Part shown: positions 3,992 through 21,214 of the stretch, piece after piece
Layout: every line of letters starts with the position of its first letter
How positions within the stretch are numbered: position 1 is the stretch's first letter
DNA from: an uncultured Acidobacteriota bacterium
GTDB lineage: Bacteria > Acidobacteriota > Thermoanaerobaculia > UBA5066
Direction: 5' to 3'
Assembly (NCBI GenBank): GCA_963779415.1
Contig: CAVZYA010000001.1
Location: 516,519 to 580,518 of the forward strand
Length of the DNA: 64,000 bases
The notes under the pieces: model-generated
Database searches by the model: none
What the model saw: the letters and a program-made list of their open reading frames with translations, nothing else
What the model was told of the DNA's origin: nothing
Program-made: the position numbers and the translations under genes

Positions 3992-4434
3992 GTCGCGTCC
4001 TTTCGCGGGGCGTCTCCGGCGGGTCCGTGCGGCCCGTCGGGAGACGCGACACCCTCGCCGCGCGCCTCCATGTCGACGCTCCCCCTGAATCTCGCTCCTT
4101 CGGCGATGACGATCTTCGGGGCCCGGATGTTCCCTTCGAGGGAGCCCGTCGGCAGCAGCTCGACCCTCTCGCCGGCGACGACGTTCCCGACGACATGGCC
4201 GCCGATGACGACGACGTTCGCGGTCACGTCGGCGAGGACCTCTCCTTCGGGTCCGACCCGGAACGAGCGGGCGACGTTCACGCGCCCCTCGATGCGGCCG
4301 TCGAAGAGCATGTCCTCCTCCCCCGTCAGATCCCCATGGAGGCGGACCTTGGGCCCGACGTAGGTACGCCGGACCTCGTGGCGGGGGGACTCCTTCTCGG
4401 GAGAAGGGGATCCGGACTTTCCGAAGATCGCCAT
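3988..4434 (-). CDS. Bactofilin-like polymer-forming protein
   Basis: ORF 3988..4578 trimmed to the internal ATG at 4434 (MAIFGK..). It has a beta-helix repeat pattern, [58 protein letters not shown]. Its stop overlaps the ALDH start (ATGA, 3988-3991). Confidence 0.8.
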
Positions 4435-4919
4435 TCGAAACGAAACGAGTGTAACCGGGCTCGTCGGGGGGAACAATGAAGCCGGAACATCAGACGCCCC
4501 AGGCTCTTCAGAAGCTCCGACTTCGGCTCGCCTGCCCGAAACGGGACAGGAGTTCTTACTTGTGCCTTCGGCGAACAAGGTAGACCGGCTTCCGGACCCC
4601 TACGTGTTCGGAACGCCCCCTTTTACGGTTCGCGTTAATTCATGTCGTCTAGTGCAAGTGCTTCATCGGCCTCGCCAGATTCCTATTTGACTCGAACGGA
4701 TTCTGGATATGATCGCCGCGAAGTCGCGATGAAGACGGAATCCGGGCGGTCGTCCTTGGCCTCCACTCGCTCGTTCTCAGCGGGAATTCCGGTCGATGCG
4801 AGCCCGGTCAGCCCAGGGAGATATTAATAATGATGGCTCAATAGAGGTCCGGCCTCTGGCGTTTCCCATTTCGTTCGAAGACGAGGAGAGGAATGAAAGG
4901 AAAGGGAGGAAAGGGATAA

Positions 4920-6053
4920 ATGAAAGAAGTCAGAAAGTCGTTCTTCCGGTTCGTTCTTCCAGCCGCGATCGTCGTTACGATTCTGGTGGCCGCGGCGCCC
5001 GCAAACGCCCAGGCCATCCTCAAGGTCTCGGACACGGTGAACCTCAAGTTCGGCATCCTCATGCAGGGGTGGGCCGACTGGCAGCAGACCCAGGCGGCTG
5101 GGGAGACGAATGGCTACGCGCAGAACCTCTTCCTCCGCCGGATGCGCATCCTGATGGCCGGCCAGGTCGCGAAGGACGTCACGTTCTTCCTCGAGACGGA
5201 CGACCCCAACCTCGGCAAGGCCCCGAAGAATCTCTACAACGTCGCGGACACGGCGACTTCGCCGGGATTCATCATCCAGGACGCGTTCATGCAGTGGAAG
5301 ATCGCGAACGAGTTCATGATCCAGGGCGGCCTCATCCTGATCCCGCTCTGCCGCAACTGCAACACGAGCGCCGCCTCGCTGCTGACGCTCGACTATGGAT
5401 CCTTCTCCTTCCTCGAGAGCGCGACCACGCAGTCGGTCGTCGGCCGTGACACCGGCTTCCAGGCCGTGGGCTATCTCCTGAGCGATCGCCTCGAGTACCG
5501 GGCCGGCGCTTATCAGGGCTTCCGCACGGCCAACTCCCACAACTCGTTCCGCTTCACCGGACGCCTCCAGTACGACTTCCTCGACGTCGAGAAGGGGCAG
5601 TTCTACCCGGGCACCTACCTCGGGAAGAAGAAGGTCCTCGCGATCGGCGCCGGCTACGACACGCAGGGCGACTACAAGGCGTACGCCTTCGACGGCTTCC
5701 TCGATCTCCCGGTCGGAAAGGGGAACGGGCTCACTGTCGAGGCGGACTTCGTCCACTACGACGGCGGAACCTTCTTCACGACCATGTACAACCAGGACAC
5801 GGAGATGGTCCGGGCCGGCTTCTACTTCGGCGGCGTCAAGCTGATGCCGTTCCTCCAGTACGAGAACGAGTCGTTCAAGGACGACATCCGGAAGGTCCTG
5901 AACAGCAGGAACTTCCAGGCGGGCCTCGCCTACTATCCCTACGGCTACAACTTCAACATCAAGCTCGCGTACACCCTCCGCGAGAGGCCGAACGACCCCG
6001 TGACCGCGAACACGAACGAGTTCACGCTCCAGATGCAGCTTTTCTACTTCTGA
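4920..6053 (+). CDS. Outer-membrane porin (OprO/OprP-like beta-barrel)
   Basis: Signal peptide ..AAAPANAQA, an LRRMRILMAG motif, alternating amphipathic strands and a C-terminal ..LQMQLFYF (terminal Phe). A purine-rich SD tract lies directly upstream. Confidence 0.7.
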   Translation: MKEVRKSFFRFVLPAAIVVTILVAAAPANAQAILKVSDTVNLKFGILMQGWADWQQTQAAGETNGYAQNLFLRRMRILMAGQVAKDVTFFLETDDPNLGKAPKNLYNVADTATSPGFIIQDAFMQWKIANEFMIQGGLILIPLCRNCNTSAASLLTLDYGSFSFLESATTQSVVGRDTGFQAVGYLLSDRLEYRAGAYQGFRTANSHNSFRFTGRLQYDFLDVEKGQFYPGTYLGKKKVLAIGAGYDTQGDYKAYAFDGFLDLPVGKGNGLTVEADFVHYDGGTFFTTMYNQDTEMVRAGFYFGGVKLMPFLQYENESFKDDIRKVLNSRNFQAGLAYYPYGYNFNIKLAYTLRERPNDPVTANTNEFTLQMQLFYF

Positions 6054-6118
6054 CACGACGTTCAGACGTCTCGTCGATTCCTGTTCTTTCGATAAATCAC
6101 GGAGGATAAGGAGGCTTC

Positions 6119-7345
6119 ATGGCGGAGGAAAAGCTACCCAACCGATGGATCATGGTCGTCGCGGCGCTGGTGATGCAGATATGCCTCGGCATCCTGTACG
6201 CCTACAGCGTCGTCCGGGGGCCCCTGACGAAGGAGCTCGGCTATACCGTCAAGGAAACCGGATACCCACTCATGGCCTCGTTCTTCTTCTTCGCGGTCGG
6301 CATGATCGTGGCCGGCCGCTGGCAGGACAAGGCCGGGCCTCGAACGGTCGGGCTCTTCGGCGGCGTGCTCCTCGCGATCGGGGCTGCGGTTGCCGGTGCG
6401 ATGTACAAGGACCTGACCATGCTGGTCATCGGCTACGGGGTCCTCGGTGGCCTCGGCGTCGGGTTCGCCTACGTCACACCGATCGCAACGTGCATCAAGT
6501 GGTTCCCTGACAAGAGAGGCACGATCACCGGCCTCGCGGTCTTCGGGTTCGGCGCGGGGACTCTCGTATTCGGGCCGCTGCTCTCCAGCCTCATCGCCAG
6601 CAGCGGCATCGCCACCACCTTCTACACCGTGGCCGTCATCATGCTCGTCTTCGTCTGTGGCTCCGCGGCCGTCTTCAAGGTCCCGCCCGCGGGCTACAAG
6701 CCCGCCGGATGGAACCCGCCGGCGCCCGCGCCGGGCGCACAGGTGATCAAGACGAACTACCTGCCGAGCGAGATCATCAAGACCGGCTCGTTCTGGATCC
6801 TCTGGTTCACCTACTTCATCGGCGCGTCGGCCGGCCTGATGATCATCGGGCAGGCGGTTCCCATCGGCGTCCAGGTGGCCAAGCTCACCGCGGCGGTGGC
6901 CGCCGGCGGCCTCGGCGTCATGGCCCTCCTGAACGGCCTCGGGCGGCTCTTCTGGGGGAGCGTCTCCGACAAGCTGGGCCGGACGAAGACCGTCATCGTC
7001 ATGTTCGTCGTCTACATCCTGGCCTTCGTCTTCGTCCTCCCGAACAGCAATACGTTCATGCTCTGGCTCGTGGGCATCTGCGCGGTCGGCTTCGCTTACG
7101 GCGGATACCTCGCTCTGATGCCTTCGCTCACGGCCGACTACTTCGGCACGAAGTCGCTCGGGGCGAACTACGGCTACCTCTTCACCGCGTGGGGCGTGGC
7201 CGGCGTGGGTGGCCCCTTCATGATCGACTGGATCAAGACGGCGACAGGCGCCTTCACGAACGCGATGTACGTCACGGCGGCCGCCTGCGTCGTCGGAATT
7301 ATTCTCGCTGCGATCGCGAAGCCCCCGAAACCGGAGGCCGCATAG
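6119..7345 (+). CDS. MFS transporter, oxalate/formate antiporter (OFA) family
   Basis: 408 aa with about 12 hydrophobic segments. The N-terminus NRWIMVVAALVMQICLGILYAYSV and AGRWQDKAGPR are typical of OFA-family MFS proteins. Confidence 0.88.
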   Translation: MAEEKLPNRWIMVVAALVMQICLGILYAYSVVRGPLTKELGYTVKETGYPLMASFFFFAVGMIVAGRWQDKAGPRTVGLFGGVLLAIGAAVAGAMYKDLTMLVIGYGVLGGLGVGFAYVTPIATCIKWFPDKRGTITGLAVFGFGAGTLVFGPLLSSLIASSGIATTFYTVAVIMLVFVCGSAAVFKVPPAGYKPAGWNPPAPAPGAQVIKTNYLPSEIIKTGSFWILWFTYFIGASAGLMIIGQAVPIGVQVAKLTAAVAAGGLGVMALLNGLGRLFWGSVSDKLGRTKTVIVMFVVYILAFVFVLPNSNTFMLWLVGICAVGFAYGGYLALMPSLTADYFGTKSLGANYGYLFTAWGVAGVGGPFMIDWIKTATGAFTNAMYVTAAACVVGIILAAIAKPPKPEAA

Positions 7346-7466
7346 ACTTAGGAGAGAAACTCTCGTAAGTGATAAGCCCGCGGGGCCGGGAGTTCCGGGC
7401 CCGGCCTCGTGGGTCATCTCTCGCAAGGCACCGGATTCGCTCCGTCAGACTTAATAACGTGCCTTC

Positions 7467-8966
7467 ATGGAGGTCCAAAACATGGCGGAAAAAAGAAATG
7501 TCGAGATCAAGAGCCGACAGGACACGCTGGCTCTGATCACTCCAGAAATCAGGCCCTGGCCTGTCTCACCACCCCCTTCGCCGGAGGAAGTGAAGAAGTC
7601 CTACGCCAAGCGGAAAGCCGAGGTGTTCGGCCAGTGGCTCGAAGACAACATGCGTCTCGAGTATTCCTGGCAGAAACCCGAGGCCCTGCAGGGCCTGAAG
7701 GTCCTCGACATCGGGCTCTGGAGGCTGGGGCACAAGTTCGGCGCCTCCACGCTCGCGCAGGCCGGTGCCGAGGTGATCTGTATCGAGCCCCCCACGGGCG
7801 ACCCGCTCAGACAGCTGACCCCCTTCGGGCGGGAAGAGTACATGCTCGCCGACAAGGAAACCGGCGAGAAGTGCGGCCTCGGGTTCATCGACATACACCG
7901 GAACACGCACTCGGTCACCCTCAACGTCGAGACTCCGGAGGGGCAGGAGCTGTTCAAGAAGCTCGCGGTCCACGCCGACATCGTCCTTGACGGGATGCTC
8001 CCCGGCTACATGGACAACCTCGGGATCGGGTACCGGGACCTCTCCCAGATCAACTCCCGCCTCATCTACGTGAACGTCATGCTCCGGGGATCCTGGGGCC
8101 CGGCAAAAGACCGCGTCTCCAAGTTCGGCCAGTGGGAACTGGATCCCTTCGCGCAGGCGACCAATTCGTACATTCACAACACCGGCTTCGCTCAGGACGC
8201 GCTGCCGCGCGGCAAAGGGGGCGACCCGACCCGGGCCGGGTCGTGGCTCGCCGACTATGTCGCCGGCGAGCAGGCGGCCGTCAACGCCCTCGCGGCGATC
8301 TACTGGCGGGAAGAGGTCAGCAATGAGGGGCAGTTCATCGAGGTGACCGGCGCCGAGACCCTGATGGACATCCTCGACTTCGACATCTCCTGGTACGGCT
8401 TCAACGGCAGCATCAAGGCGCGGACAGGGGGATGGGACCCCAACCTGAACCAGTATGCGTGGAACCCGTGCCGGGACGGCTACATGATGATCGGCGGCCA
8501 GAGCGACCGGCTCTGGTACCGGATCGGCATGTGCATCGAGCGGGACTTCCCGCAGTTCGGCCGGCTCATCCACGAAGACCCCTTCCTGAAGGAAGTCGGC
8601 GCGCGGAACGCCCTCCACGCCCTCATCAAGACCTACACCGTCACGACGCGCTGGCTCCGGGAGACCAATCGGATCGAGGCCGAAGAGAAGCTGATGGACT
8701 ACGAGATCGCGGCCGGCCCGCTCCTCTTCATCGACGAGACCTGCGAGTTCCCCCACTTCAAGTACCGGCCCTGGGTCTACAACTGCGAGACGGACTACGG
8801 GACCGTCCTCTACTCGACGGTCAATAACGCCTATCAGATGAGGACGCCGCACCGGGTCAAGTGGCTCGGGAGACGGCTCGGCAAGGACAACTACGACGTC
8901 TACCAGCGCTGGGCCGGACTGGGCCCGAACAAGGTGGACCAGCTCAAGGGAAAGGGGGCGATCTAA
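7467..8966 (+). CDS. CoA-transferase family III (CaiB/BaiF/Frc-like), paralogue 1
   Basis: [39 protein letters not shown], plus an Asp-containing active-site region [20 protein letters not shown] second in-frame ATG at 7482 is an alternative start. Confidence 0.88.
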
Positions 8967-10354
8967 TGGCCGGCGAGATCAGACCCAAGAGTGCGGGCGA
9001 GCTGCATGAGATGCGGGCGCCCTACGAGGAGTTCTGCCGGAAGGCCTTCGATCCCGGCAACGAGCACTCGAAGCCCGAGTCGCTGAAGGGGATCCGGTGG
9101 CTCTCCTGCACGATGTACATCTTCACGCCCCACTCGGCCGCGAACCTGGCCGAGCTGGGCGCCGAGGTGATCAAGATCGAGATCCCCCGGATGGGCGACG
9201 CCATGCGGCACACCTCGCCCTTCAACGAGGCGTACCTCTATCCCCTCCACGACACCCGGCCGGGGACGGGAACCGGGTTCGGGTTCACGAACGCCAACCC
9301 GAACAAGCACTTCATCTCCCTCGACTATCACGTACCGGAGATGCGGGAAGTTTTCTACAACATGGTCCGGCAGAGCGACGGGCTGACCGAGCTCTACCGT
9401 CCCGGGACCTTTGACCGCTGGAAGATGAGCTACCCGACCCTCGCGCAGATCAACCCGCGGTTCATCTACGTCTGGGGCGGCGGGTTCGGCTACGGGCCGA
9501 AGGTCTTCGGGGGCTCCTATGACATCCTCGCGCAGTCCCACGCCGGGTTCGCGTCCATCACCGGAATGCACGACTTCATGGGCGGCCACTGCTCCAAGTC
9601 ATCCAACTGGGTCATGGACTGGGCCTCCGGCACCCTGATCACGTTCGGGATCCTCGCCTCCATTCTCTGGCGCCGGAAGACCGGCCTCGGCACCATGATC
9701 GAGTTCTCGCAGGTGCAGACCTCCACGATGTTCACCGAGTATGCCGTTCCTCTTTACGGCCGGTTCGGCATCGTCCGGCAGCGGTGGGGAAACTGGGACA
9801 CCCAGCTCTGCGCCCACGGGATCATCCTTTGCGGCAAATCCGACTTCCCCGATGCCCAAAACCCGCAGGACAAGTTTGACGCCCGGTACGTCATGGTCTC
9901 CGCCTTCCAGGATGCGGACTTCAAGGAACTCTGCAACGTCGTCGGCCGGAAAGACATCTACGATAAATACAAAACGCACAAGGACCGGCTCGACCCCCGG
10001 GCCCAGGTCGACATCTACCAGGCGCTCGAGAAATGGGCCGGAGACAAGACCCGGGCGGCGGTGGTCAAGGTCCTGACCGACGCCGGCATCCTCGCCTCCC
10101 CCGTCATGAACGACCGGGAAGTCTACGAGTACGAGCACTACCGCGAGCGGGGCACCGTCCGCTGGATCGACGACCCCCTCTTCGGCGACTTCCTCCTGCA
10201 GGCCGGCTACAGCGCCGGCCACCTGGCCAAGACCCCGAGAAGGACGAACTGGATCTGGCGGCCCGTTGGCGCCGACAATGTCAAGATCTACCGGGATCTG
10301 CTCGGCTATCCACTGAGCAAGATCGAGGAGTGGTATGGCAAGGCCTACATCTAA
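8966..10354 (+). CDS. CoA-transferase family III (CaiB/BaiF/Frc-like), paralogue 2
   Basis: ORF 8861..10354 trimmed to ATG 8966 (TAATG junction with the upstream stop). Motifs [42 protein letters not shown] and [19 protein letters not shown]. Confidence 0.88.
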
Positions 10355-10368
10355 AAGGAGGCAGCGCC

Positions 10369-10854
10369 GTGTGTGACATCATCTGGTGCAAGAAGCAGGT
10401 TTCCGGCAAGACGTGCAACACCGTCAATTACCTGGACCCGTACAACTTCTGGAACTGGGAAGGCAAGGTGAACTGCGCCGAGTGCGGGACCGTCTACGCC
10501 ATCCACATGATCCAGGGCTTCATGTACAAGGGGCCAACGGAGAAACCCGGAGAGAAGCCCGACATGAGTCCCCTCTACGCCGACAAGCCGCTGGAGGGCT
10601 ACCGGTGTTACCTTCCCGGGATCGAGGGCAGGACGAGGCCTTGGCAGTGCCTCCCCCGACATATCTACCTCGGCCACGCGGACACGGTGAAGTGGAGCCT
10701 CCGCGGAAGACCCGTGCGTGGCTGGCGTCCTCAGCCGAAGTCTGCAGGCATCGCTGGAAGCTTCGGCCACAAGTGGGATATCGAGAAACTCTCACCGGAG
10801 ATCTGGGCCGAATACCAGGAGAAGCTGAAGAGCGGGAAGCTGAAGGACTGGTGA
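10369..10854 (+). CDS. Hypothetical protein with an N-terminal Cys cluster (zinc-ribbon-like)
   Basis: ORF 10033..10854 trimmed to GTG 10369, just downstream of AAGGAGG. The product starts VCDIIWCKKQVSGKTC..(18)..CAEC. No family recognised. Confidence 0.6.
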   Translation: MCDIIWCKKQVSGKTCNTVNYLDPYNFWNWEGKVNCAECGTVYAIHMIQGFMYKGPTEKPGEKPDMSPLYADKPLEGYRCYLPGIEGRTRPWQCLPRHIYLGHADTVKWSLRGRPVRGWRPQPKSAGIAGSFGHKWDIEKLSPEIWAEYQEKLKSGKLKDW

Positions 10855-10876
10855 GACATTCAGAAAGGAGCGCCAC

Positions 10877-11137
10877 ATGGCCGAGGGAAAACAGTTAACG
10901 CCTGAAGAATTCCTGGCTACGGTTCTCGTGCCGCAGTATGGCCGGGAAAGCGGGCACATGTGCTGGGATTGCAAGCACTTCAAACCGGTTCTGAAGGGCT
11001 CCAAGTTCCCGCCCACCGACACGATCGGCTGGTGCACGCAGATCCACTGGCCCTTCTACTGGTGCGTGACGGACTTCAACGTCGTCAAGAAGTGCTACGC
11101 CTTCGAGAAGGGCATTTACACCTTCAAGAAGTTCTGA
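10877..11137 (+). CDS. Small Cys-rich hypothetical protein (possible Fe-S or Zn protein)
   Basis: 86 aa, with GAAAGGAG 6 nt upstream. Cys pattern CWDC-x20-C-x9-C-x9-C. Confidence 0.65.
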   Translation: MAEGKQLTPEEFLATVLVPQYGRESGHMCWDCKHFKPVLKGSKFPPTDTIGWCTQIHWPFYWCVTDFNVVKKCYAFEKGIYTFKKF

Positions 11138-11138
11138 C

Positions 11139-11432
11139 ATGGAGGAGAACGTCCGGAAGGAGCTGGATACGCTCACGGGGATGGTGCTGACCTGGAAGAA
11201 GGACTATCTCGGGTCGGTATCATCCGATGAGGACTGCGAGTACCTCGCTCGGGAATTCCTGGACGAGGTGGAGACCCACGTCTACCCCTACGTGAGGAGG
11301 CTCATGGAATGCAATTTCCTCACGGGACCGGAGGCGACGGAGTTTCTCGACTCCTGCTATCGCCAGGCAGAGGAGCTGAACAAAGCCATCCAGCAGCCGG
11401 ACGCCAAACAGGGTGAAACGATAGGAGGGTAA
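11139..11432 (+). CDS. Hypothetical protein (acidic, probably helical)
   Basis: 97 aa. The ATG lies 1 nt after the upstream stop, and G/C at codon position 3 is high. No family recognised. Confidence 0.6.
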   Translation: MEENVRKELDTLTGMVLTWKKDYLGSVSSDEDCEYLAREFLDEVETHVYPYVRRLMECNFLTGPEATEFLDSCYRQAEELNKAIQQPDAKQGETIGG

Positions 11433-11434
11433 AC

Positions 11435-11854
11435 ATGGCTGAGAAATGCCGAGTGGGGGTCTGCGGGTACGACCCCGTTCTGGTGAAGGGATACGTCAAG
11501 ACAGGCGAGCGAGCCCTCTGGTGGCACCTGTCGGACGAGGTGTACGAACAATACCAGGTGAAGCCGGGTGACACCGTCACCGGGAAGATCCTGGCGGTTT
11601 ACGACGGGACCGGCACGAAGACGGCCTCCCCGAACGAGCCCTTCGAGTGGAAGTGCCCGAAGGAGTCGGGCCTGGCGGTCCTCCTGCCGCCTGCGACCAT
11701 CGTCAAGTTCAAGCTCTCCGCTTTCCATTTCCTCGAGCTGCTCGTGGAGAAGGTCGGCGGAAAGGACGTCTATCCCGGCAAGGAGCAGATGAGCTTGAAA
11801 TGGTGGCCCGAAGAGAGGATGAAGCTCGACTACAAGGTGCCTTACATCGAGTAG
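11435..11854 (+). CDS. Hypothetical protein
   Basis: 139 aa. AGGAGGG lies 5 nt upstream and the ATG is 2 nt after the upstream stop. N-terminal CRVGVC. No family recognised. Confidence 0.65.
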   Translation: MAEKCRVGVCGYDPVLVKGYVKTGERALWWHLSDEVYEQYQVKPGDTVTGKILAVYDGTGTKTASPNEPFEWKCPKESGLAVLLPPATIVKFKLSAFHFLELLVEKVGGKDVYPGKEQMSLKWWPEERMKLDYKVPYIE

Positions 11855-11948
11855 AACACAGGACGCTCTCTCCCCCGCTCCCTTGAAGCGCCGGTTCCGT
11901 TCGGACCGGCGGGCAAGGACCGGGCGGGGCGAAATCAGTCGCTCACGG

Positions 11949-11993
11949 CCCCCTCTCCTGGCCCTGAAGCACCAGGAGAGGGGGATTCTTTTT
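11949..11993 (+). terminator. Rho-independent terminator closing the CoA-transferase operon
   Basis: Perfect 13-bp stem ccccctctcctgg (11949-11961) / ccaggagaggggg (11972-11984) with a 10-nt loop, followed by attcttttt. Confidence 0.75.
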
Positions 11994-12048
11994 CATGTAT
12001 CCTCGGCGATGGAACGGTGACATTCGATCGGAAGGGAGAATCGCGTAC

Positions 12049-12291
12049 ATGACAGAACACGACAAGCCGAATGAAGAGGGCTACACGGCTCCGGCGTACG
12101 TCGACCCGGCGATGGGCGACAGCCCCCCCGTCGGAGGCCTGATTGACAACGAGGCCGTCTGCCGGGACTGCATGACCGCCGCCGAGGAAGTCAGCATGCG
12201 GCGCGGGTTTGTCGACCCCGTCTCCGAGCAGCAGGCCAAGGCGAAGGGGACCGTCTGCGCCCGGTGCGGCAAGAAACTCGTCGCCGCGTAG
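12049..12291 (+). CDS. Small zinc-ribbon-like protein (two CxxC knuckles)
   Basis: ORF 11995..12291 trimmed to ATG 12049, which has GGAAGGGAGAA just upstream. 80 aa with CRDC-x29-CARC. Confidence 0.55.
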   Translation: MTEHDKPNEEGYTAPAYVDPAMGDSPPVGGLIDNEAVCRDCMTAAEEVSMRRGFVDPVSEQQAKAKGTVCARCGKKLVAA

Positions 12292-12334
12292 CGCCCCCTT
12301 CAATCCAGCCGGACGGGGCGGGCGGAATCACCTC

Positions 12335-12748
12335 ATGGCAGAGCCGGAAAAGGCCCCACGACGAGAGGTCGTCGAGCAGCTCCTGCCGCTCGTGGTGGAG
12401 TTGATTCCAGGGCAGGCGGCTGAAGGCCTGATCGAAGTGCTCGAGCCGGGCAGCTACGAGGCCCATTCCCTCCGGACGCTTTGCGAGAATCTCCTCAGGA
12501 GAACGAACTGGAGCGTGGAGGAGCAGCAGGTCCTGGAGGACATCAGGAGACAGCTCGACGGGGGCCGGCTCCTCTGCCGGGGCCGACCCGTCGACGGCCG
12601 GGCTCTGGATCTCGCGGTGGTCGAGGAAACCGAAGCAGGCGAGAAGTATCTCTATGTGCCTGTCCACGCCATCAGGCCGCAGGAAGGCGGAGGCGCGGCA
12701 CCCCGGATCGCGCACCAAAGTTCAGCAGACGAGAGCAGGAGCCTATGA
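12335..12748 (+). CDS. Hypothetical protein
   Basis: ORF 12209..12748 trimmed to ATG 12335. Codon-position-3 G/C is high on the + strand, and the antisense ORF 12191..12718 looks compositional. No family recognised. Confidence 0.55.
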   Translation: MAEPEKAPRREVVEQLLPLVVELIPGQAAEGLIEVLEPGSYEAHSLRTLCENLLRRTNWSVEEQQVLEDIRRQLDGGRLLCRGRPVDGRALDLAVVEETEAGEKYLYVPVHAIRPQEGGGAAPRIAHQSSADESRSL

Positions 12749-12951
12749 GTTCCAGGTTCGTAGTCACGGAGAGCACCACGGTGGACGATGTTGCCGCGGC
12801 GGGCCGGCCCGACCCCCTCTACTGCAAACTCGGCCTGGGCCAGCAGGCCCGCGTCCTCGCGGACGAGATCGATGCCGCGCTTGGTGGGGATACGAGCTGC
12901 GGGGGCGCCGGACTCGGATATGTTCCGGACATCGTAGAGGTTGAAGAATAG
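12745..12951 (+). CDS. Small acidic-tailed hypothetical protein (candidate modifier or adaptor)
   Basis: ATG 12745 overlaps the upstream stop (ATGA). 68 aa: MSSRFVVTES..VLADEIDAALGGDTSCGGAGLGYVPDIVEVEE. Confidence 0.45.
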   Translation: MSSRFVVTESTTVDDVAAAGRPDPLYCKLGLGQQARVLADEIDAALGGDTSCGGAGLGYVPDIVEVEE

Positions 12952-12964
12952 CCTGGAGAATCGC

Positions 12965-13159
12965 GTGGAGATAGAGGCTCCCAAGGACTGGGACCCGAAG
13001 TGCCCAAAGTGCCAGGAAGAGCTTCGACGAATGCTCGAGCTGTCACAGTCGGTCTACGAGGACCTCGACCACGGCGCGGGGTTGTACCGGTTGCCGTTGC
13101 CACCTTGCACGCACCATGCGGCGCAGGGCGAGCACAAAGACGCAGGAGGGGTCGCTTGA
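12965..13159 (+). CDS. Small Cys/His protein ending ..DAGG-VA (candidate Ubl/sulfur-carrier-type modifier precursor)
   Basis: The track ORF starts at TTG 12941, but I prefer GTG 12965 (GGAG 6 nt upstream). 64 aa with CPKC-x32-CTHH and C-terminus EHKDAGGVA. Codon position 3 is mostly G/C. Confidence 0.45.
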   Translation: MEIEAPKDWDPKCPKCQEELRRMLELSQSVYEDLDHGAGLYRLPLPPCTHHAAQGEHKDAGGVA

Positions 13160-13199
13160 CAGACCCACTTGTGGCTTTCCGGCCGTCGGGCGCCCCGGC

Positions 13200-14411
13200 A
13201 TGATGGATCTGCTGGAGTCCGACCTGGAGCTCGTCGTCCGGTCAGGATTCATCTACCTGCCGCTCCTCTTTGATCCTTCGGTGGCGACGGAGATCGAGGG
13301 GAACGTGGGCAATCACCTGGTCGCCCGGGACGCCGGCAGGCATTTCGTTCGGACGATGAGCCTGCGATCGCTCGTTTCAAGCTACGAGGCTCTCTGGCCG
13401 AAGTCGTACGAGAAGTTGCGGCGGTCGAAGCTGTGCCGGTTCTCCGGGGACCTTTCGCCGGCCGAAACGGGCGCCAGCGAGCGGCTGAAGGAGATCCTCT
13501 TCTCCGTCATGCCGCACTTCGTCAGGAGGGGGAAGCGGCTCGACAGGAGGCGGCTGACCGAGGAGGACGTGCTGGACCTCATCGAGGAGAGAACCGGACT
13601 TCCCGGCGGATACGCCATGGCTGCAGCCAGCGCTCGGGATCCGGGCTCCATCCGGCAGATCCTCGTGGAACTCGAGGAACGCCGCCCGGCGGCCGAGCCG
13701 CTGCCCGAGGGCCGAATGTCTGCGCGGACCCTCGCGGATTGGCTTCTGCGCGCCCAGGAAGCCCGGATTCTGGAAGAGGAGAGCCAGCGACTGACGGGGT
13801 TTCTCTCCGCGCAGGAGGGCCTCGATACGAGGGCGGCCAGGCGGCTGGCGATTTTGCGGTGCGTCGCGGAGAAGGGGACGTTGGAAATCGACGGATTCGG
13901 CTTTCTGAGGACAGGACCCGGCGACGACTACGTGATCTACAAGCGCACCGGCGAGTTCGCTCTCAAGGACTACTACGGTCGGCTCTATCTGTTTCCGGAT
14001 TGCCGGGTTGCCGTGTCGACGGCCGCTGGCCTCAGGCCCTTCGTCGTGGAGACCTACAAGCATCCGTTTCTCGAGGCCCACGACTCCGGCCAGGAGATCT
14101 GCCTGGGCCGCACCACGGCGCGCCGCTTCTCCGGAGCGGCGGCGATCGTCGAGGCTCTGCAGGAGGGAATCAACGCCCTGCTCCATGGCTACAGCAGCCG
14201 GCGCCGAAACGGGTACCACAGACTGGAGGGACTGTTGAGGTCGGTCCGGCTCCCTGGCCCGGACGATCCCGGCTACCCGGAACCGCCGGACGACAGGCCC
14301 CGCTCCAAGCGGCACATCCTGGACGTCGACTTCGACGACTACCGCATCCCGGCCGATCACCCCGGGATCGTGTCGGGTCGGGTCGAGATCACCAACGACG
14401 TCGTGCCGTGA
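13200..14411 (+). CDS. Unknown protein with a putative UBC/E2-like C-terminal domain
   Basis: ORF 13116..14411 trimmed to ATG 13200, since the upstream gene ends at 13159. The C-terminal part reads DDYVIYKRTGEFALKDYYGRLYLFPDCRVAV..LRPFVVETYKHPFLEAHDSGQEICLGRT, which parallels the E2 core (..HPN..G.ICL..). The N-terminal ~230 aa are unassigned. Confidence 0.6.
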   Translation: MMDLLESDLELVVRSGFIYLPLLFDPSVATEIEGNVGNHLVARDAGRHFVRTMSLRSLVSSYEALWPKSYEKLRRSKLCRFSGDLSPAETGASERLKEILFSVMPHFVRRGKRLDRRRLTEEDVLDLIEERTGLPGGYAMAAASARDPGSIRQILVELEERRPAAEPLPEGRMSARTLADWLLRAQEARILEEESQRLTGFLSAQEGLDTRAARRLAILRCVAEKGTLEIDGFGFLRTGPGDDYVIYKRTGEFALKDYYGRLYLFPDCRVAVSTAAGLRPFVVETYKHPFLEAHDSGQEICLGRTTARRFSGAAAIVEALQEGINALLHGYSSRRRNGYHRLEGLLRSVRLPGPDDPGYPEPPDDRPRSKRHILDVDFDDYRIPADHPGIVSGRVEITNDVVP

Positions 14412-14884
14412 TGACGACGGACGACACCCTCTCGCGGGACGAGCCGCCCCGGGCGACGCCGGATCTGTTGCGGGACATAAGAACCATGCGCGCCGGCAGG
14501 CGGCGGAAGGAGCCCTTTCGGACGAGCCTCTACTCCCGGGTCGGGGGTCTGGTGAGGCGATATGGCCTGGACGAGGCGTTCCTCCGGGCGCTCGACTCCC
14601 CGGGCGGCTTCTCCCGGGACGGCCGTCCGGATGCCGTCCGGCCGAAGGGGAAAGCGCCCTATGCTCCTCCCCTCTTTTTCCTTTCCACGGAGAGAGAGCA
14701 CCGCGTGACGACGGTCATCCTGGAGAAAGTGAAGAGCCCGTTCCTCGCGTACGCCACGTCGCCCGACGAGATTCTCCTCTGCGAACGCCTGTTCCGTGAG
14801 GACCCGTCCCTTTCTCAGGAAACGCTCGCGTGCCATCATTTCGAGACGTTGATGCCGGCCGGAGCGGATTCCGGGCCGGGCTGA
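14411..14884 (+). CDS. Hypothetical protein
   Basis: ATG 14411 shares 1 nt with the upstream TGA (TGATG). 157 aa. No family recognised. Confidence 0.6.
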   Translation: MTTDDTLSRDEPPRATPDLLRDIRTMRAGRRRKEPFRTSLYSRVGGLVRRYGLDEAFLRALDSPGGFSRDGRPDAVRPKGKAPYAPPLFFLSTEREHRVTTVILEKVKSPFLAYATSPDEILLCERLFREDPSLSQETLACHHFETLMPAGADSGPG

Positions 14885-14899
14885 GGCGGGAGGAGAGTC

Positions 14900-16000
14900 G
14901 TGGAACGGATTTCGCCGCAACGCCGCCGGGAGATCGGGGAGAGAGTCGGCGCATTCCGCGAGAGCCAGGTCGGCGACGCCGTCAATCAGATTCTCGAGTT
15001 CGACAAGACGCCGGCCGACCTCAAGGCCTACATGGACCGGTTCGTCATCGGCCAGGAGCAGGGGAAGAAGATCATCTCCGTCGGCATCGCCTACCATTAC
15101 CGGAGGCTCGCGGCGGCCCTCAGGCGCGCCGTCGTCGAGAACGGCGAGGAGCTGGGCGCCGCCTTGCACGGCGCGGCCACGCCGAAGGCCAACATCCTGA
15201 TCGTGGGGCCCCCCGGCTGCGGGAAGACCTACACGGGCGAGGTCGCCTCCCGGCTCGTGGGGGTGCCGTTCGCCGTGGAGGACCTGACGAAGTTCAGCGA
15301 AACGGGCTACGTGGGCCAGAACGTGAGCGACATCCTCCTGGACCTGCTGATCGCGGCCGGCGGCAACCCCCAGGTGGCCCAGATGGGCATCGTCTACCTG
15401 GACGAGATCGACAAGATCGCCGCCGAGCCGATCGTCTCGAAGGACGTGTCGGGGCGCGGGGTCCAGAAGGGGCTCCTCAAGCTCGTCGAGGGGGCCGAGA
15501 ACACCATCGACCTGGGCCAAGAACGGATCTCCCTTTCCACCCGACACGTCCTGTTCATCGCAGGAGGCGTGTTCGAGGGGCTGGAAGGAACCGTCGGAAA
15601 GCGGATGGAAAGGGATCGTCTCGAAGGCGAGTGGAAGGACCACCTCCTCACGGACGACTTCGTCGGCTGCGGGATGGAGCGGCAGCTCATGGGGAGGTTC
15701 CCCGTTCGGGCCGTCTACGACCCGCTCAGCGTCGAAGACCTCAAGAACATCCTGCTCGAGAGCGAGGAGAGTCCGTCCCGCGCCTACATCGACGACCTGA
15801 AGGCGTGGAACATCGAACTCCGGTTCACGGACGGCGCTCTCACGGAGGTCGCGAGGCGCGCGCAGCAGGATCGGACGGGCGCCCGGGGACTCATCGGCAT
15901 CCTCCACAAGGTGCTTCTGGAGGACATGTACCGGCTTCCGGGCGTCCACACCGGCGAGCTGGTGGTGGACGAGAAGTACATCCGGGAGCGGCTCGGGTGA
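14900..16000 (+). CDS. ClpX/HslU-family AAA+ ATPase (minimal, with no zinc-binding N-domain and no IGF loop)
   Basis: GTG start after GGAGGAGAG. Motifs [27 protein letters not shown], Walker A GPPGCGKT, pore-1 loop ETGYVGQN, Walker [28 protein letters not shown] and sensor-2 TGARGL. Confidence 0.88.
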
Positions 16001-16803
16001 GATTCCGGGGGCTCTCGGAGCTGAAGCGCGCGCCATGCTTCGAGGCTCCCGTGGGAACCCTGCCGGAGTGGATCCGGATGACGCGTCACTCCCTCGCGAA
16101 GGCCTTCAAGATCAACGAGCTCGTCCGGTCCGTCCACGGGGACAGCTACGAGTGGTACGGATTCACCGTCGCCGAGCGGAGCGATCCGGAGCTGGTCGTG
16201 GACGTTCTTCTTCCGGCCAACGACGAGAACTTCACGGACCACACCCGCGTCGCACCCGAGGCGATCGACGCGTCGAGAGAGTCCCTCCCCCGGGATCGGG
16301 TGATCAACGGCTGGATCCACTCCCACGGGGCCCTGCCGTACGAAGGGTTCTCCTTCGTGGACGAGAGGAACCAGGAGGCCGTGACCGATTACGTGAACAC
16401 GCTTCTCAGGAAGCCGGTGGCCAAGAAGGAGATCCTGATCAGGGACCTCGCGATCCTCGTCGAGGGCCGCTTCTCGGAGAAGGAGCTGGAGCAGGGAAGC
16501 GTCGCGCTCATCACCGACGCCCCCGTCAAGGAGGCCCGGATCATCGAGACCATATACGGAAGCTTCTGCTTCGCCATCGTCATCGGCGACGACGGCTGGC
16601 ACAGGCAGCAGGTCCATTACCGCAGGCGGGGCATCCTTTCCGGGCAGACGACCGAGGAGAGCCGGGACACCGACATCGTCCTTTCGGGCGACGCGCGGCC
16701 GCTCACCGAGGCGGAGATCCAGATGCTGGCGGACGAGGTCCGCACCCGGATCCGGCCGGGCGTGGCCGTTCCACCCGAGCGGTTCGAGCGGGAGGCGACA
16801 TAA
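15997..16803 (+). CDS. JAB/MPN (JAMM) metalloprotease-domain protein
   Basis: JAMM signature: Glu in SYEWYGF, then [18 protein letters not shown] (HxH..S..D). The start is either GTG 15997 (GTGA overlap with the ATPase stop) or ATG 16078. The ~100-aa C-terminal extension is unassigned. Confidence 0.8.
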
Positions 16804-16840
16804 GGTCGGCGGCGGCCTGGGGCGAAGGGACGCGATCGGC

Positions 16841-18118
16841 ATGGAGACGGGACCGGCTCGCGAGAAGGCGCATGACCCGAGGCTGGACCGCCAGCTCCGG
16901 ATCCCGAACTGGAACCAGCGGGCCCTCGAGGAGGCGCGGCTCGCCGTCTTCGGCGACGACGACCTTCTCGCCTCGCTCTACGTCCTCTCCGCCGCGGCCC
17001 TCGGCGTGAACGACGTCGTCCTGATCGCGCCCGCCTGGAATGAGAAGCTGATCGAAATCGCCCGCCAGCTCAATCCGAGGCTCAGGCTGGCCCTCCTCGA
17101 GGGGCTCCACACCCACCCGGTCCTGGAGGAGCTCTTCAGGCCCTGCACGGCCATCGTGGACCTCACCCGCTACGCTCTGGCCAACAAGCTTCTGCTGGAG
17201 ACGGGCTACCGGTCGGGAATTCCGGTGATCCGTGGGTTCTGCCTCGAGAAAGACGGGTGGGAAGGGCTCTCCGTCTTCACCTACAGGCGCGGCCGGGAGT
17301 GGGAGGAGCTCCGGGAGCTCGTCTCGCCCTCCAATCTTCCCTGCGACCACTTCGACGACGCGATTCTGGCCCTCGTCGCGGCCGGCATCGCCCTGGAAGA
17401 AACCAAGAACGTCATCATGGGACACCGGGTGTCGGAGGAGCTGATCGGCTACAGGCGGCCGAAGGTGGTTCCCCTGGAGCCCGACTCCGGCGTCATCATC
17501 GTCGGCGCCGGCGCCCTGGGTAACTTCGTCGGGCTCGGACTGGCCTGTACGGGGCTCCGGCGAATCACGGTCGTCGATCCCGACGTGGTGGACGTGACTA
17601 ACCTCAACAGGCAGGTGCTCCTGGCCGGCGGCGTAGGCCGAAGCAAGGCCGAGGTCCTCTGCGAGCGCCTGCACTCCCTCTTCGGAATCCGGGCGGAGGC
17701 CCGGGTGGCTTATTTCCGGAAGGACTCCGAGCTCGACGCCTCCGACGCTGTCTTCGATTGCGTGGACAACTTCGAGACCCGGGTGATCCTGAGTGAGAGG
17801 TGCCGGGAAGAGGGAAAGGTGCTCATCAGCGGCGGCACGGGCCCTCAGGCCGGACAGGTCATCGTGTTCGATCCGGCGCGCCCGAGCGAAACGCCCGCGG
17901 AGGTTCTGGGACTCTACGAAATCGTCGAGAGGCGGGAGATCGACGCCTTCCGGAGGGAGACGGCGTCCTGCGCCTACCAGCCCGATCCGTCCGTCGTCAT
18001 GACGAATCAGATTATCGGAGGATTGATGGCCGATTCCTATCGTAGGCTCCTGGCCGGAGAGGAGACCCCGAATATCTTCTACGATTCGAGGAACGACGCC
18101 CGGATCTTCGGGGGGTGA
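16841..18118 (+). CDS. E1-like ThiF/MoeB/HesA-family adenylyltransferase with tandem (degenerate + active) Rossmann domains
   Basis: The active domain has VIIVGAGALGNFVGLGLACTGLRRITVVDPDVVDVTNLNRQVL and a Cys in RETASCAYQPDPSVVMTNQIIGG. The N-terminal half repeats the fold outline (LDRQLRIPNWNQRALEEARLAVFGDDDLLASLYVLSAAALGV) but lacks GxGxxG. Confidence 0.88.
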   Translation: METGPAREKAHDPRLDRQLRIPNWNQRALEEARLAVFGDDDLLASLYVLSAAALGVNDVVLIAPAWNEKLIEIARQLNPRLRLALLEGLHTHPVLEELFRPCTAIVDLTRYALANKLLLETGYRSGIPVIRGFCLEKDGWEGLSVFTYRRGREWEELRELVSPSNLPCDHFDDAILALVAAGIALEETKNVIMGHRVSEELIGYRRPKVVPLEPDSGVIIVGAGALGNFVGLGLACTGLRRITVVDPDVVDVTNLNRQVLLAGGVGRSKAEVLCERLHSLFGIRAEARVAYFRKDSELDASDAVFDCVDNFETRVILSERCREEGKVLISGGTGPQAGQVIVFDPARPSETPAEVLGLYEIVERREIDAFRRETASCAYQPDPSVVMTNQIIGGLMADSYRRLLAGEETPNIFYDSRNDARIFGG

Positions 18119-18191: not shown

Positions 18192-19415
18192 ATGAGCAGC
18201 GAGAACGACGTCGCGCAGACTCAGGAGGACCAGCCGATCGGCTGGCAGCGCCTCGGCGACGTCCTGACACCGCCGATTCCCGGCTTCGAGGACCTCCTCT
18301 TCCTTCCGAGCCTCGACAATCAGTCCTCCAACATCTACGTCCTGCCGGGGGACTGCGTAACGATCGTGGACCCGGGGAACGATTACACGGCCTTAATGGA
18401 GCTCTTCCCTGCGAGAGCCAGGCCCGAGGACGTCAGGAAGATCGTCCTGACGCACGGGCATTTCGACCACGCCATGGGGGCGCTCGAGTTCCTCAGGACG
18501 TATCCGGATCGCCCCACGGGCGCGCGCATCGAGCTGATCCTCCACGAAGGGGGTCCCGACCAGTTCAAGCAGACGGCGAGGGAGCAGGGCGCCTCCGTGA
18601 CCGAGGTACGGGGCGGGGAGACTCTCGAGCTGAGCGGCCTTTCCTTCGACGTGATCTACACGCCAGGCCATACCATCGACGGCATCGCCCTCTATCACGC
18701 CCCCTCGAGGACCGTCTTCAGCGGCGACGTCGTGCTGCCGCTCGCGGTAGCCGGACCCGATCCCAAGGCCGGGGGAAGCCTGGACCAGTACCTGTTCGGG
18801 CTGAGGGCGTTGCTCGCGAGGGAGATCGAGAACGTCCTCCCGGGCCACGGCCCCGTCGTCGGCCCGGGCGGGAGGAAGGTCATCGAGCAGACCTACGAGG
18901 CCGTCATGATGAAGCTCCTGGGGGTCGAGAAGCCGATCCCGTGGATCCAGGGTGCCATTCAGCTCGCGGAGCGCGGGCTGCTGGAAGAGGCCGTTTTCTG
19001 CGCCGGGAAAGAGCTGGCCCGCGACCCGGGGCACGCCAAGGCCCTCGAGCTCAAGGCCGTGTGCCTCAACGATCTCGGGCGGTCGTCTGAGGCCCTCGAG
19101 GTCCTGGATCGGCTGCAGGAGCTGCAGGCCGGCGACGATGCGTTCATCCACGTCGGCAGGGGATATGCCCTCATGGGGCTTGGCCAGTTCGAGGAGAGCG
19201 TCAAGTGCTTCGACGCCGCTCTCCGCATCACGCCGGGCCTGAGGGACGCGCTCGTCTACAAGGGGATGGCCCTCCATCTCTCGGGGAACCACGAGGAGGC
19301 CATGGACATCGAGCCCTTCAGGACGGAGTTCATGGGGCGGTTCCGGAGCGAGCTGCTCAAGGCGTCGCGGCCCGCCCCGAAGGATGGCCTCGCCGAAGGC
19401 ACTGGAAAGGCCTGA
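18192..19415 (+). CDS. Metallo-beta-lactamase-fold hydrolase fused to TPR repeats
   Basis: AAGGAG lies 5 nt upstream. Motif VLTHGHFDH (HxHxDH) and TPGHT. The C-terminal ~150 aa are TPR-like helical repeats (..AKALELKAVCLNDLGRSSEALEVLDRL..). Confidence 0.85.
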   Translation: MSSENDVAQTQEDQPIGWQRLGDVLTPPIPGFEDLLFLPSLDNQSSNIYVLPGDCVTIVDPGNDYTALMELFPARARPEDVRKIVLTHGHFDHAMGALEFLRTYPDRPTGARIELILHEGGPDQFKQTAREQGASVTEVRGGETLELSGLSFDVIYTPGHTIDGIALYHAPSRTVFSGDVVLPLAVAGPDPKAGGSLDQYLFGLRALLAREIENVLPGHGPVVGPGGRKVIEQTYEAVMMKLLGVEKPIPWIQGAIQLAERGLLEEAVFCAGKELARDPGHAKALELKAVCLNDLGRSSEALEVLDRLQELQAGDDAFIHVGRGYALMGLGQFEESVKCFDAALRITPGLRDALVYKGMALHLSGNHEEAMDIEPFRTEFMGRFRSELLKASRPAPKDGLAEGTGKA

Positions 19416-19540: not shown

Positions 19541-21214
19541 GTGAGCACGATTCCCGAAAACTATCTTCCCCCGAAGGAGTTCCAACCCGAGCGGATCTAC
19601 AAGCTGAAGGAGTTCGCGAGCTACCCGGATCCGCTGAACAGCACCGAGGAGCTACTCGACAAACAGATCGCCGCGGGCCGGGGCGACAGCCCGGCGGTCC
19701 TCTTTGCGGACAAGGTCCTGACCTACAAGCAGCTTCTGGGGGCGTCCTGCAAGATCGGGAACGCGCTCCGGAAGCTGGGGGTCGAGGAGTCGGACCGGGT
19801 GTTGCTCCGCTCTCCGAACGTTCCGCCCGCCCTCTTCACGAACTTCGGGGTCCTGAGGCTCGGGGCGGTCATCGTCCCGACCTCTCACATGCTCTCCCCC
19901 CCGGAGATCATCCACATCGCCAACAACGCCGAGGCGAAGGTGATCGTGGTGGCGTCCGCGTTCCTCGAAGGGGTCATCAAGGCGCGCCCGAACCTGAAGA
20001 CCGTCAAGCACGTCATCGTCTTCGGCGGCCAGCCCGAGGAGCTGAAGAAGCAGGATCTTCTCTGCTACGAGGAGCTCGTCGCGAACGAGGCGCCGGCCTT
20101 CGCCCCGGTACGCCGTCCGCGCAAAGCCGTCGCCGTTCTTCTTTACACCTCGGGCACGACCGGCCTGCCGAAAGGGACGGTCCACTACCAGGAAGAGGCC
20201 CTGATCGTTCCGGACACCTTCGGCAAGTACGGATGGAACGTCCAGCCGGAAGACATCATCTGCGGACCCGCGCCCATCTCGCTGGCCGGCGGATACTCGA
20301 CCGTGGCGACGATCCCCTTCCGGTTCGGCGCCGCGGCCTCCCTGATTCCCAAATTCACGCCGGACGGGCTCTTCGAGACGGTCCAGAATCACAAGGTGAC
20401 GATCCTGAGCGCCCTCCCCACGGCGTACCGCAAGATGCTCGAGGTTCCCGGCGCGGAGAAGAAATACAACCTCTCCACCCTCCGCGTCCTGACCGGTGGC
20501 GGTGAATCGCTGACCGCAAAAACCTACAACGACTGGAAGGGGCGCTTCGGCCAGGAGATCTACGAGGGGCTCGGCACGTCGGAGATGATGTACGTCTTCG
20601 TCTCGAGCGTGGTGACGCGGAAAGTCAAGCCCGGCGCGATCGGCACCGCCGTCCCCGGTTACGAGATCCAGGTCATCACCGAGGAGGGAAAGGTCGCCAA
20701 GCCCGGAGAGCTGGGCCGGCTTTACGCCCGCGGGCCGACGGGGACGCTCTACTGGCGCCCGTACGAGGACGGCGGCAGCATGCTGGAGAAGCAGAAAGCC
20801 GTCATCCGCGAGGGGTGGGTGCTCGTCGGGGACTTCTGCACGATAGACGACGACGGGTACCTCAGCTTCGTGTCGCGCCAGGAGGACCTGATCAAGAGCT
20901 CCGGCTACCGGATCGGACCCGAGGAGGTCGAGGACGCTCTTCTCAAGCACCCGGCCGTGGCGGACGCCGGCGTGATCGGGGTTCCGGACCCCGTCCGGGG
21001 CCACAACGTCAAGGCCTTCGTCCTCCTGAGGCCCGGACAGACGCCGAGCGACGAGCTGAAGCAGCAGATCATCGACAGTTGCCGAGATCACATCGCGATC
21101 TACAAGCTTCCCCGCATCATCGAATTCACGAGCGAACTCCCGCGCACCCTCCAGGGGAAGCTCCTCCGGCGGGTTCTGCGGGACAAGGACAAGGGGGCGG
21201 CTCCCGCGAGCTAG
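19541..21214 (+). CDS. AMP-forming acyl-CoA synthetase (benzoate-CoA-ligase-like)
   Basis: ORF 19205..21214 trimmed to GTG 19541, after AGGAGGA. AMP-binding motifs LLYTSGTTGLPKG, GYRIGPEEVE and a C-terminal ..LPRTLQGKLLRR. Confidence 0.9.
   Translation: MSTIPENYLPPKEFQPERIYKLKEFASYPDPLNSTEELLDKQIAAGRGDSPAVLFADKVLTYKQLLGASCKIGNALRKLGVEESDRVLLRSPNVPPALFTNFGVLRLGAVIVPTSHMLSPPEIIHIANNAEAKVIVVASAFLEGVIKARPNLKTVKHVIVFGGQPEELKKQDLLCYEELVANEAPAFAPVRRPRKAVAVLLYTSGTTGLPKGTVHYQEEALIVPDTFGKYGWNVQPEDIICGPAPISLAGGYSTVATIPFRFGAAASLIPKFTPDGLFETVQNHKVTILSALPTAYRKMLEVPGAEKKYNLSTLRVLTGGGESLTAKTYNDWKGRFGQEIYEGLGTSEMMYVFVSSVVTRKVKPGAIGTAVPGYEIQVITEEGKVAKPGELGRLYARGPTGTLYWRPYEDGGSMLEKQKAVIREGWVLVGDFCTIDDDGYLSFVSRQEDLIKSSGYRIGPEEVEDALLKHPAVADAGVIGVPDPVRGHNVKAFVLLRPGQTPSDELKQQIIDSCRDHIAIYKLPRIIEFTSELPRTLQGKLLRRVLRDKDKGAAPAS

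Follow-up and report, generated by a model that had tools for sequence, protein, structure and literature searches.

The pairing of an inactive with an active adenylation domain in the E1 pseudo-dimer was long regarded as a eukaryotic hallmark. The first-pass annotation of the DNA considered here still set bacterial homodimers against eukaryotic pseudo-dimers, a contrast that is now outdated. BilD, the E1 of the Type I and Type II Bil (bacterial ISG15-like) anti-phage operons, is a bacterial single-chain E1 with an inactive adenylation domain (IAD), an active adenylation domain (AAD) and a CYS domain, and its structure has been solved (PDB 8tyz; published 2023–24, Chambers et al., 10.1101/2023.09.26.559546). 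Here we describe a smaller E1-like protein, encoded in a 64,000-nucleotide (nt) stretch of DNA from an uncultured Acidobacteriota bacterium (contig CAVZYA010000001.1, positions 516,519 to 580,518; hereafter the window). We are highly confident that this protein is a tandem of two ThiF/MoeB-type domains, one dead and one live, predicted to form an intramolecular pseudo-dimer, and its gene shares a cassette with genes for a candidate ubiquitin-like (Ubl) modifier and for proteins resembling E2, JAB and the ATPase ClpX. Positions below are those of the window, the features between 12335 and 19415 lie on the + strand, and amino acid (aa) numbers refer to the E1-like protein unless stated.

The E1-like gene occupies 16841..18118 in the open reading frame (ORF) list, stop codon included, and encodes 425 aa. 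A homologue search returned more than 850 proteins, of about 413 aa each, that cover its full length; E1 residues called invariant are so in an alignment of 36 homologues (A1). The protein exceeds the curated Pfam threshold for the ThiF/MoeB/E1 superfamily (PF00899), with a match restricted to aa 216–411 (E = 1.7e-35; score 122.7 bits, cut-off 28.1). An AlphaFold2 model built on 36 homologues (predicted local distance difference test (pLDDT) 83.8, predicted template modelling score (pTM) 0.88) has an identical order of strands and helices in aa 33–207 and aa 217–415, and the two ThiF-fold domains are predicted to pack against each other like a dimer within one chain, as in a pseudo-dimeric IAD plus AAD E1. 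When this model was used as a Foldseek query, the best 50 PDB matches were all single-chain UBA7, Uba1 or UBA6, with a query template modelling (TM) score of about 0.65. As expected of such an E1, the nucleotide-binding motifs are gone from one of the two domains, the N-terminal half.

The live domain is the C-terminal one. This AAD (17486..18115) carries the Pfam ThiF match, and its sequence matches in the PDB were TcdA, Uba4, the Uba1 AAD, ThiF and MoeB. Its nucleotide-binding loop, GAGALG (aa 222–227, 17504..17521; G222, G224 and G227 invariant), is the sole GxGxxG found by motif scan in the protein. The ATP-binding motifs from DPD (aa 246–248) through NLNRQ (aa 254–258), at 17576..17614, align with those of TcdA and Uba1, and D246, P247, D248, T253, N254, L255, N256, R257 and Q258 are invariant. 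A further strand, DCVDN (aa 306–310, 17756..17770; D306, C307 and D309 invariant), aligns with DAIDS of TcdA and NALDN of Uba1, and it contains the Asp that we take, from established knowledge of ThiF/MoeB enzymes, to bind Mg. The full ThiF-type motif set (GxGxxG, the Asp after beta-2, NxxRQ and the Mg Asp on the DxxDN strand) is kept throughout the 36 homologues. Judged from these motifs, each chain has one active site, as the nucleotide and Mg motifs are confined to the C-terminal half.

The N-terminal half (IAD, aa about 10–207, 16868..17461) opens with RLDRQ (aa 14–18, 16880..16894), in which R14, R17 and Q18 are invariant. When a profile of the N halves was compared with PDB sequences, RLDRQ aligned with RYNRQ of MoeB, and GDDD (aa 38–41, 16952..16963), which takes the place of the GxGxxG nucleotide loop, stood opposite the GLGGLG loop of MoeB. 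Within this segment, part of FGDDDL (aa 37–42), G38 and D41 are invariant and D39 is nearly so. Motif scans of A1 found the R..RQ motif once in the chain, at the N terminus of the inactive half, and both NLxRQ and DxxDN missing from that half. Scanned alone against Pfam, the N half gave a sub-threshold, in-register ThiF match (E = 0.067, aa 72–139 on profile positions 81–148). When a profile built from 26 N halves (A6) was run against the full set of PDB sequences, its sole significant match was E. coli MoeB (E = 1.8e-4 for the whole sequence and 0.0068 for the aligned stretch). This alignment is collinear, running from RLDRQ/RYNRQ through the first strand (beta-1), the DLS/DCTDN (DxxD) strand and the RGF/SGA (GG) strand to the FTY strand.

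For the distribution of the family, we scanned one genome per GTDB species; 208 species had an E1 relative, and the best 80 loci plus two further loci made up a set of 82. The N half is present in all 82 of these fetched loci, and at 62.6% mean identity to the query it is as conserved as the C half (63.1%). Relatives with as little as about 27% identity (27–36%) align across aa about 13–405 as a single stretch. The conservation of the N half exceeds chance, and the N half is not a dispensable add-on. Having lost nucleotide binding (GDDD, no NLxRQ), the N domain would be kept as a structural partner. In BilD, Arg9 of the inactive domain is supplied to the active site, as is an arginine in eukaryotic IADs (10.1101/2023.09.26.559546). 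By analogy, R14 or R17 of RLDRQ, a candidate arginine donor, is probably the arginine supplied to the C-half active site.

These results largely uphold the first-pass annotation, which was made from the letters alone. Its intact GxGxxG and NLNRQ in the C half were found as quoted, together with DPD, and its reading of the N half as a ThiF outline with FGDDDL and lacking NLxRQ agrees with the MoeB profile match and the fold model. The structure prediction that it proposed gives the same strand–helix order in both halves. Its further proposal, a comparison of each half with the ThiF profile, came out clearly for the C half and sub-threshold for the N half. A separate, dispensable N domain, which it had named as one outcome that would overturn its reading, was not seen in the 82 loci.

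Cys377 (ASCAYQ, codon 17969..17971) is a candidate thioester-forming residue on a short crossover loop. It is invariant in A1, and a Cys occupies the same column in 19 of 20 diverse two-domain relatives, including those at 27–40% identity. In the model, the crossover region (aa 344–385, about 40 residues) consists of two short helices and a disordered loop, with Cys377 in a low-confidence segment (370–378) between the beta-strand at 337–343 and the helix at 386–404. The model has no inserted CYS/SCCH domain in this loop and no ubiquitin-fold domain (UFD) at the C terminus: the chain stops ~20 residues past the last AAD helix, and orthologues end alike. A motif scan found no CxxC in the E1 or in any of the 36 aligned homologues. 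Because the CYS/SCCH and UFD domains of canonical E1s are missing, the protein is eukaryote-like solely in its pseudo-dimer core. The eukaryote-like layout suggested earlier thus holds for the modelled core and fails for the appended domains, while the crossover-loop Cys at the MoeB/ThiF position and the missing zinc CxxC motifs were both correctly read.

In the window, the E1 gene is the last of a tightly packed, same-strand cassette in which start and stop codons overlap. The cassette is conserved in roughly 60 of the 82 loci, which are species-level, and the gene order within the module is fixed, with the E1 gene either first or last. Components were counted over these loci by tblastn, with most misses on short contigs.

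The first gene of the cassette (12335..12748) encodes a candidate Ubl modifier of 137 aa, found in 66–68 of the 82 loci. Its GG (aa 118–119 of this protein, nt 12686–12691) is followed by an 18-aa tail. In orthologues, between 0 and about 27 unrelated residues (about 0–20 in most) come after an invariant ...RAI(K/R)PQEGG, and two orthologues terminate exactly at GG. At the level of sequence, an invariant PQEGG with a variable tail is the signature of a Ubl modifier precursor. The next large gene (13200..14411; 60–65 of 82 loci) encodes an E2-like protein of 403 aa, whose C-terminal core, with an invariant KHPFL...GQxIC (C301 of this protein, codon at nt 14100–14102), is predicted to have a UBC-like fold. 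It is followed by a gene for a conserved protein of about 157 aa (14411..14884; 61–63 of 82 loci) that always lies between the E2-like and AAA genes. Profile-library scans gave no family match for this protein, which could be an adaptor or E3-like factor.

The fourth component is a ClpX-like AAA+ ATPase of 366 aa (14900..16000; Pfam AAA_2, AAA and ClpB_D2-small), found in 61–63 of the 82 loci. It matches the NCBIfam ClpX model with E = 1.4e-76, at 258 bits below the cut-off of 359, and the match begins at model position 59. The ATPase keeps Walker A and B and a TGARGL sensor, and the GYVG pore loop is present in 58/58 orthologues. A CxxC in the first 60 aa and an IGF-type loop ([ILMV]G[FLM]G) were each found in 0/58. 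The protein looks like an unfoldase that lacks the zinc-binding N domain and does not dock ClpP in the usual manner. The GTG start of the last partner gene (15997..16803) overlaps the stop codon of the AAA gene; its product, a JAB/JAMM-like protein of 268 aa, was found in 60 of the 82 loci. The JAMM motif residues are conserved among its orthologues: H108, S109, H110, S119 and D122 never vary, at least 90% of the sequences have E52, and 14 of 31 orthologues match Prok-JAB weakly (best E = 0.0043).

Searches of open-access papers gave no account of a cassette of ClpX with E1, E2 and JAB, and the cassette is apparently undescribed. None of the operon types 6a–6e of Iyer et al. (2006) includes an ATPase resembling ClpX or such an E2 (PMC1779556).

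From the motifs and the gene association we infer the following chemistry. The JAB-like peptidase would remove the variable tail to expose a modifier ending in ...PQEGG, for which there is a precedent in the Bil system, where the JAB peptidase trims the Ubl tail (10.1101/2023.09.26.559546). The C-terminal E1 domain would bind ATP–Mg and adenylate the terminal Gly of the 12335–12748 product, with the ATP site completed by the N-terminal arginine motif (RLDRQ) of the dead domain acting as an arginine finger. Cys377, on its short MoeB-like crossover loop, would then accept the modifier as a thioester and hand it on to the Cys conserved in the E2-like protein (HPF...C), from which it would reach target proteins, and the ClpX-like ATPase would act on the proteins so tagged. 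Taken as a whole, the proposal of a minimal single-chain E1 that activates the PQEGG modifier for E2-like transfer, with JAB trimming and ATPase action, appears likely to us. For activation of the Ubl and its transfer to the E2-like protein, assessed separately, our confidence is slightly lower, though still above even.

Several points weigh against these conclusions. The family is known here by computation only, and the structure of the E1 is a prediction. The N and C halves did not match each other significantly by hhalign, global or local (probability 0.1–1%), although the local alignment was collinear, so that the internal repeat emerges only from the MoeB comparison and from the fold. The loop that bears Cys377 has a pLDDT below 50, so that its placement relative to the active site is only predicted. 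Bub E1/E2 pairs can use Tyr/Ser oxyesters rather than Cys (10.1101/2024.11.21.623953), which makes it risky to assign a catalytic residue by conservation alone. On the side of the partners, the putative beta-grasp fold of the modifier found no support in sequence comparison, as its profile had no significant hhalign match to E. coli MoaD or ubiquitin. The JAB-like protein of the window itself had no match in Pfam, NCBIfam or PDB sequences, and searches of PDB sequences with the E2-like, JAB-like and Ubl-like family profiles gave no meaningful matches. Without an IGF-type loop in the ATPase, there is no support for tying the system to proteolysis.

The hosts of the cassette are mainly Desulfobacterota (Desulfobacterales, Syntrophobacterales, Desulfarculales, Desulfobacca and the isolate Desulfoferrobacter suflitae DRH4), with others in Binatia, in Methylomirabilales/NC10 and in one Acidithiobacillales metagenome-assembled genome (MAG), the last of which is the closest of the genome loci scanned (72% identity). 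The cassette recurs over one broad lineage set at 50–60% identity, mostly on large chromosomal contigs.

Beyond this clade, we found many diverse two-domain relatives of 430–520 aa (P0156–P0268) with an N-terminal RYDRQ and a single NLNRQ. A relic GSGxLA loop often survives in the N half of these distant relatives where the clade of the window has GDDD, and they carry one CxxC right after the last sheet strand, where that clade has TPAE. Because distant relatives carry CxxC, the lack of zinc motifs is a clade-specific loss. It seems that tandem proteins of one dead and one live ThiF domain are common among prokaryotic metagenomes and extend far outside the Bil family.

Three loci with two-domain E1 relatives at 28–36% identity (L083–L085) were looked up. 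At the first, L083, the E1 gene is accompanied by genes for a 131-aa protein that terminates in QEGG and a tail, for a weaker E2-like homologue and for a JAB-containing protein of 959 aa. L084 (GCA_964584825.1, CAZPBI010000046.1, 3578–7466), on a low-GC contig, encodes a 126-aa protein ending in PQEGGYLC and the E1, along with an E2-like homologue (E = 3.6e-31) and a JAB-like homologue (E = 3e-43), and has no ATPase. Since its core adjoins genes for an aEF-1alpha-type elongation factor and ribosomal protein S10, the context suggests an archaeal host. Separately, one E2-like homologue (P0377) is labelled Nitrososphaera sp. In the third locus, L085 (JGI 3300037810, 1–17317), genes for a JAB-like homologue and for a distant E1 of two domains, at 28% identity, lie within a long run of small same-strand genes that includes a second ThiF gene (220 aa); the locus resembles a phage or some other mobile element.

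This last context bears on the biological purpose of the system, for which we considered an alternative that would leave the proposed enzymatic mechanism intact. The cassette might be a system of anti-phage defence of the same kind as Bil, Bub or the cyclic oligonucleotide-based anti-phage signalling system (CBASS) of type II, tagging phage or host proteins on infection rather than serving a housekeeping function. All bacterial E1–E2–Ubl–JAB operons characterised by experiment to date are defence systems (10.1101/2023.09.26.559546; 10.1101/2024.11.21.623953), and L085 lies in its phage-like run of small genes. The PADLOC E1–E2 (Cap2) models match the AAD (best E = 6.7e-16), but these matches are limited to the generic adenylation domain, and the other cassette proteins match none. 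In the window, the cassette is flanked by genes for an MFS transporter, a pair of family-III CoA-transferases, an acyl-CoA synthetase, a cytidylate-kinase-like/BON protein and a PPDK-like enzyme, among which no integrase, transposase, other mobile-element gene or known defence gene was seen. The recurrence at 50–60% identity on large chromosomal contigs also resembles vertical inheritance more than a patchy island, and we consider a defence role unlikely.

Lower still we rate a reading in which the chemistry itself differs. The E1 could be a MoeB/ThiF/TtuC-type activator of a sulfur carrier, whose adenylated GG would be converted to a thiocarboxylate for cofactor or thionucleoside synthesis, with conjugation absent or secondary, as for archaeal SAMPs; Cys377 would then act as does Cys184 of ThiF, in an acyl-disulfide or persulfide relay. 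The AAD is indeed closest to sulfur enzymes, both in NCBIfam (ThiF 6.5e-26, MoeB 3.5e-23) and among PDB sequences (TcdA, Uba4, ThiF and MoeB), yet its scores fall far below the cut-offs of the NCBIfam equivalogs (ThiF TIGR02356, 91 against 275; MoeB NF004281, 82 against 266; MoeB TIGR02355, 64 against 377). The N half is MoeB-like as well, and Cys377 lies on a short MoeB/ThiF-like crossover loop rather than in a CYS domain, whereas the E1 lacks the zinc CxxC motifs that MoeB and ThiF have. Likewise, the modifier has a GG end like ThiS and MoaD, but its precursors bear tails that need removal. There is no rhodanese domain, and genes for ThiG, ThiH, MoaE and cysteine desulfurase are absent from the conserved cassette, which encodes in their stead a protein of predicted UBC fold with an invariant Cys, besides the JAB-like protein and an ATPase of unfoldase type. 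A sulfur-carrier function is, in our view, quite improbable.

Least credible is a chain that dimerises through a single ThiF domain, with an N half that is an unrelated substrate-binding or E2-like module (compare the MccB/PaaA peptide clamp and the Cap2 E2–E1 fusion); although aa 1–215 contain no Pfam domain at default thresholds, the two halves do not match by hhalign and BilD was itself once taken for an E2–E1 fusion (10.1101/2023.09.26.559546), the collinear MoeB match and the repeated fold of the model leave it very little room.

Other genes accompany the cassette less regularly. Directly 3' of the E1 gene, 18192..19415 encodes a metallo-beta-lactamase (MBL)-fold protein with C-terminal tetratricopeptide repeats (TPR) (Pfam Lactamase_B, E = 5.7e-24, plus TPR families). 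This is a frequent but not constant neighbour, with an orthologue within 10 kb of the cassette, on either strand, in 23–24 of the 82 loci. MBL proteins also accompany unrelated '6A-MBL' E2–E1–JAB systems. In the gap between the modifier and E2-like genes lie two small overlapping ORFs, at 12745–12951 (68 aa) and 12941–13159 (72 aa). By tblastn, the 68-aa ORF was found in one locus and the 72-aa ORF in 5 of the 82, only in Binatia, Methylomirabilales and Acidithiobacillales. The latter contains CPKC...C..HH and may encode a zinc-binding adaptor. The family-III CoA-transferase and acyl-CoA synthetase genes flank the cassette at 7467–10354 and 19544–21214. An unrelated locus likewise has a CoA-transferase III gene close to its cassette (L001:20767–21242), which may be coincidence.

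If the PQEGG protein is conjugated and its targets are passed to the ClpX-like ATPase, the cassette would represent a new bacterial protein-tagging pathway. The E1 family would add to BilD a second, far more MoeB-like bacterial pseudo-dimer, common in several environmental phyla, and would bear on the evolution of E1s from MoeB/ThiF homodimers. More speculatively, these observations can be joined into one account, which we offer tentatively and expect is more apt to fail than to hold in full. The cassette would be an undescribed tagging system comprising a PQEGG modifier, a large HPF–Cys E2, a divergent JAB and a minimal IAD–AAD E1, inherited largely vertically in bacteria and with archaeal-looking relatives. 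Its coupling to a stand-alone ClpX-like unfoldase in Desulfobacterota, NC10, Binatia and Acidithiobacillales would be a bacterial counterpart of Cdc48/proteasome-like ubiquitin-directed unfolding, rather than a phage-defence island. The E1 would be a structural intermediate between the MoeB/ThiF homodimer and the eukaryotic E1, because it has MoeB-type motifs in both halves, no CYS domain and no zinc site.

With BilD (Chambers et al., 10.1101/2023.09.26.559546) this E1 has the IAD–AAD layout in common, but BilD has a CYS insertion and a four-Cys zinc site, and the E1 described here has neither. The genes of the Bil operon (Ubl, E2, JAB and E1) have candidate analogues in the cassette, where the E2-like protein is ~400 aa long and retains HPF, and where the AAA and 157-aa genes are additional. 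We rejected membership of the Bil family: hhalign of A1 against BilD of E. aridi gave a probability of 14% over the AAD only, both the CYS insertion and the zinc site are missing, and BilD is not among the 60 listed of the 72 PDB sequence matches of the E1.

The eukaryotic E1s, whether single-chain (Uba1, UBA6 and UBA7) or heterodimeric (NAE1–UBA3 and SAE1–SAE2), measure ~1000 aa, compared with 425 aa here, and the FCCH, SCCH (CYS) and E2-recruiting ubiquitin-fold domains and the zinc site of the canonical enzymes are all absent. Unlike in canonical E1s, the Cys lies on a short loop, as it does in MoeB, ThiF and Uba5. In sequence, MoeB/ThiF enzymes (Uba4, TcdA) are nearest to both halves, and they share the short Cys-bearing crossover loop, the N-terminal RxxRQ and a GG-ending substrate (a candidate one here). 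They are one-domain homodimers with two active sites and a CxxC...CxxC zinc motif, whereas here the domains are fused, one is dead and there is no zinc motif; the genomic partners are of E2, JAB and AAA type rather than sulfur-transfer enzymes. Assignment as a MoeB/ThiF sulfur-carrier equivalog was rejected on the sub-cut-off NCBIfam scores and the two-domain chain lacking CxxC.

BubCD/BubBD of the Bub systems (formerly 6E/DUF6527) and Cap2 of type II CBASS form homodimers through a single adenylation domain that is fused to JAB or E2, and Bub uses Tyr/Ser oxyesters and a DUF6527 protease (10.1101/2024.11.21.623953). In the cassette, by contrast, JAB and E2 are encoded by separate genes, the E1 Cys (Cys377) is conserved, where a Bub E1 has no conserved Cys, and no DUF6527 was found, which does not fit a Bub E1. 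The protein is a distinct, smaller and widespread variant of a pseudo-dimer architecture that is itself already known in bacteria.

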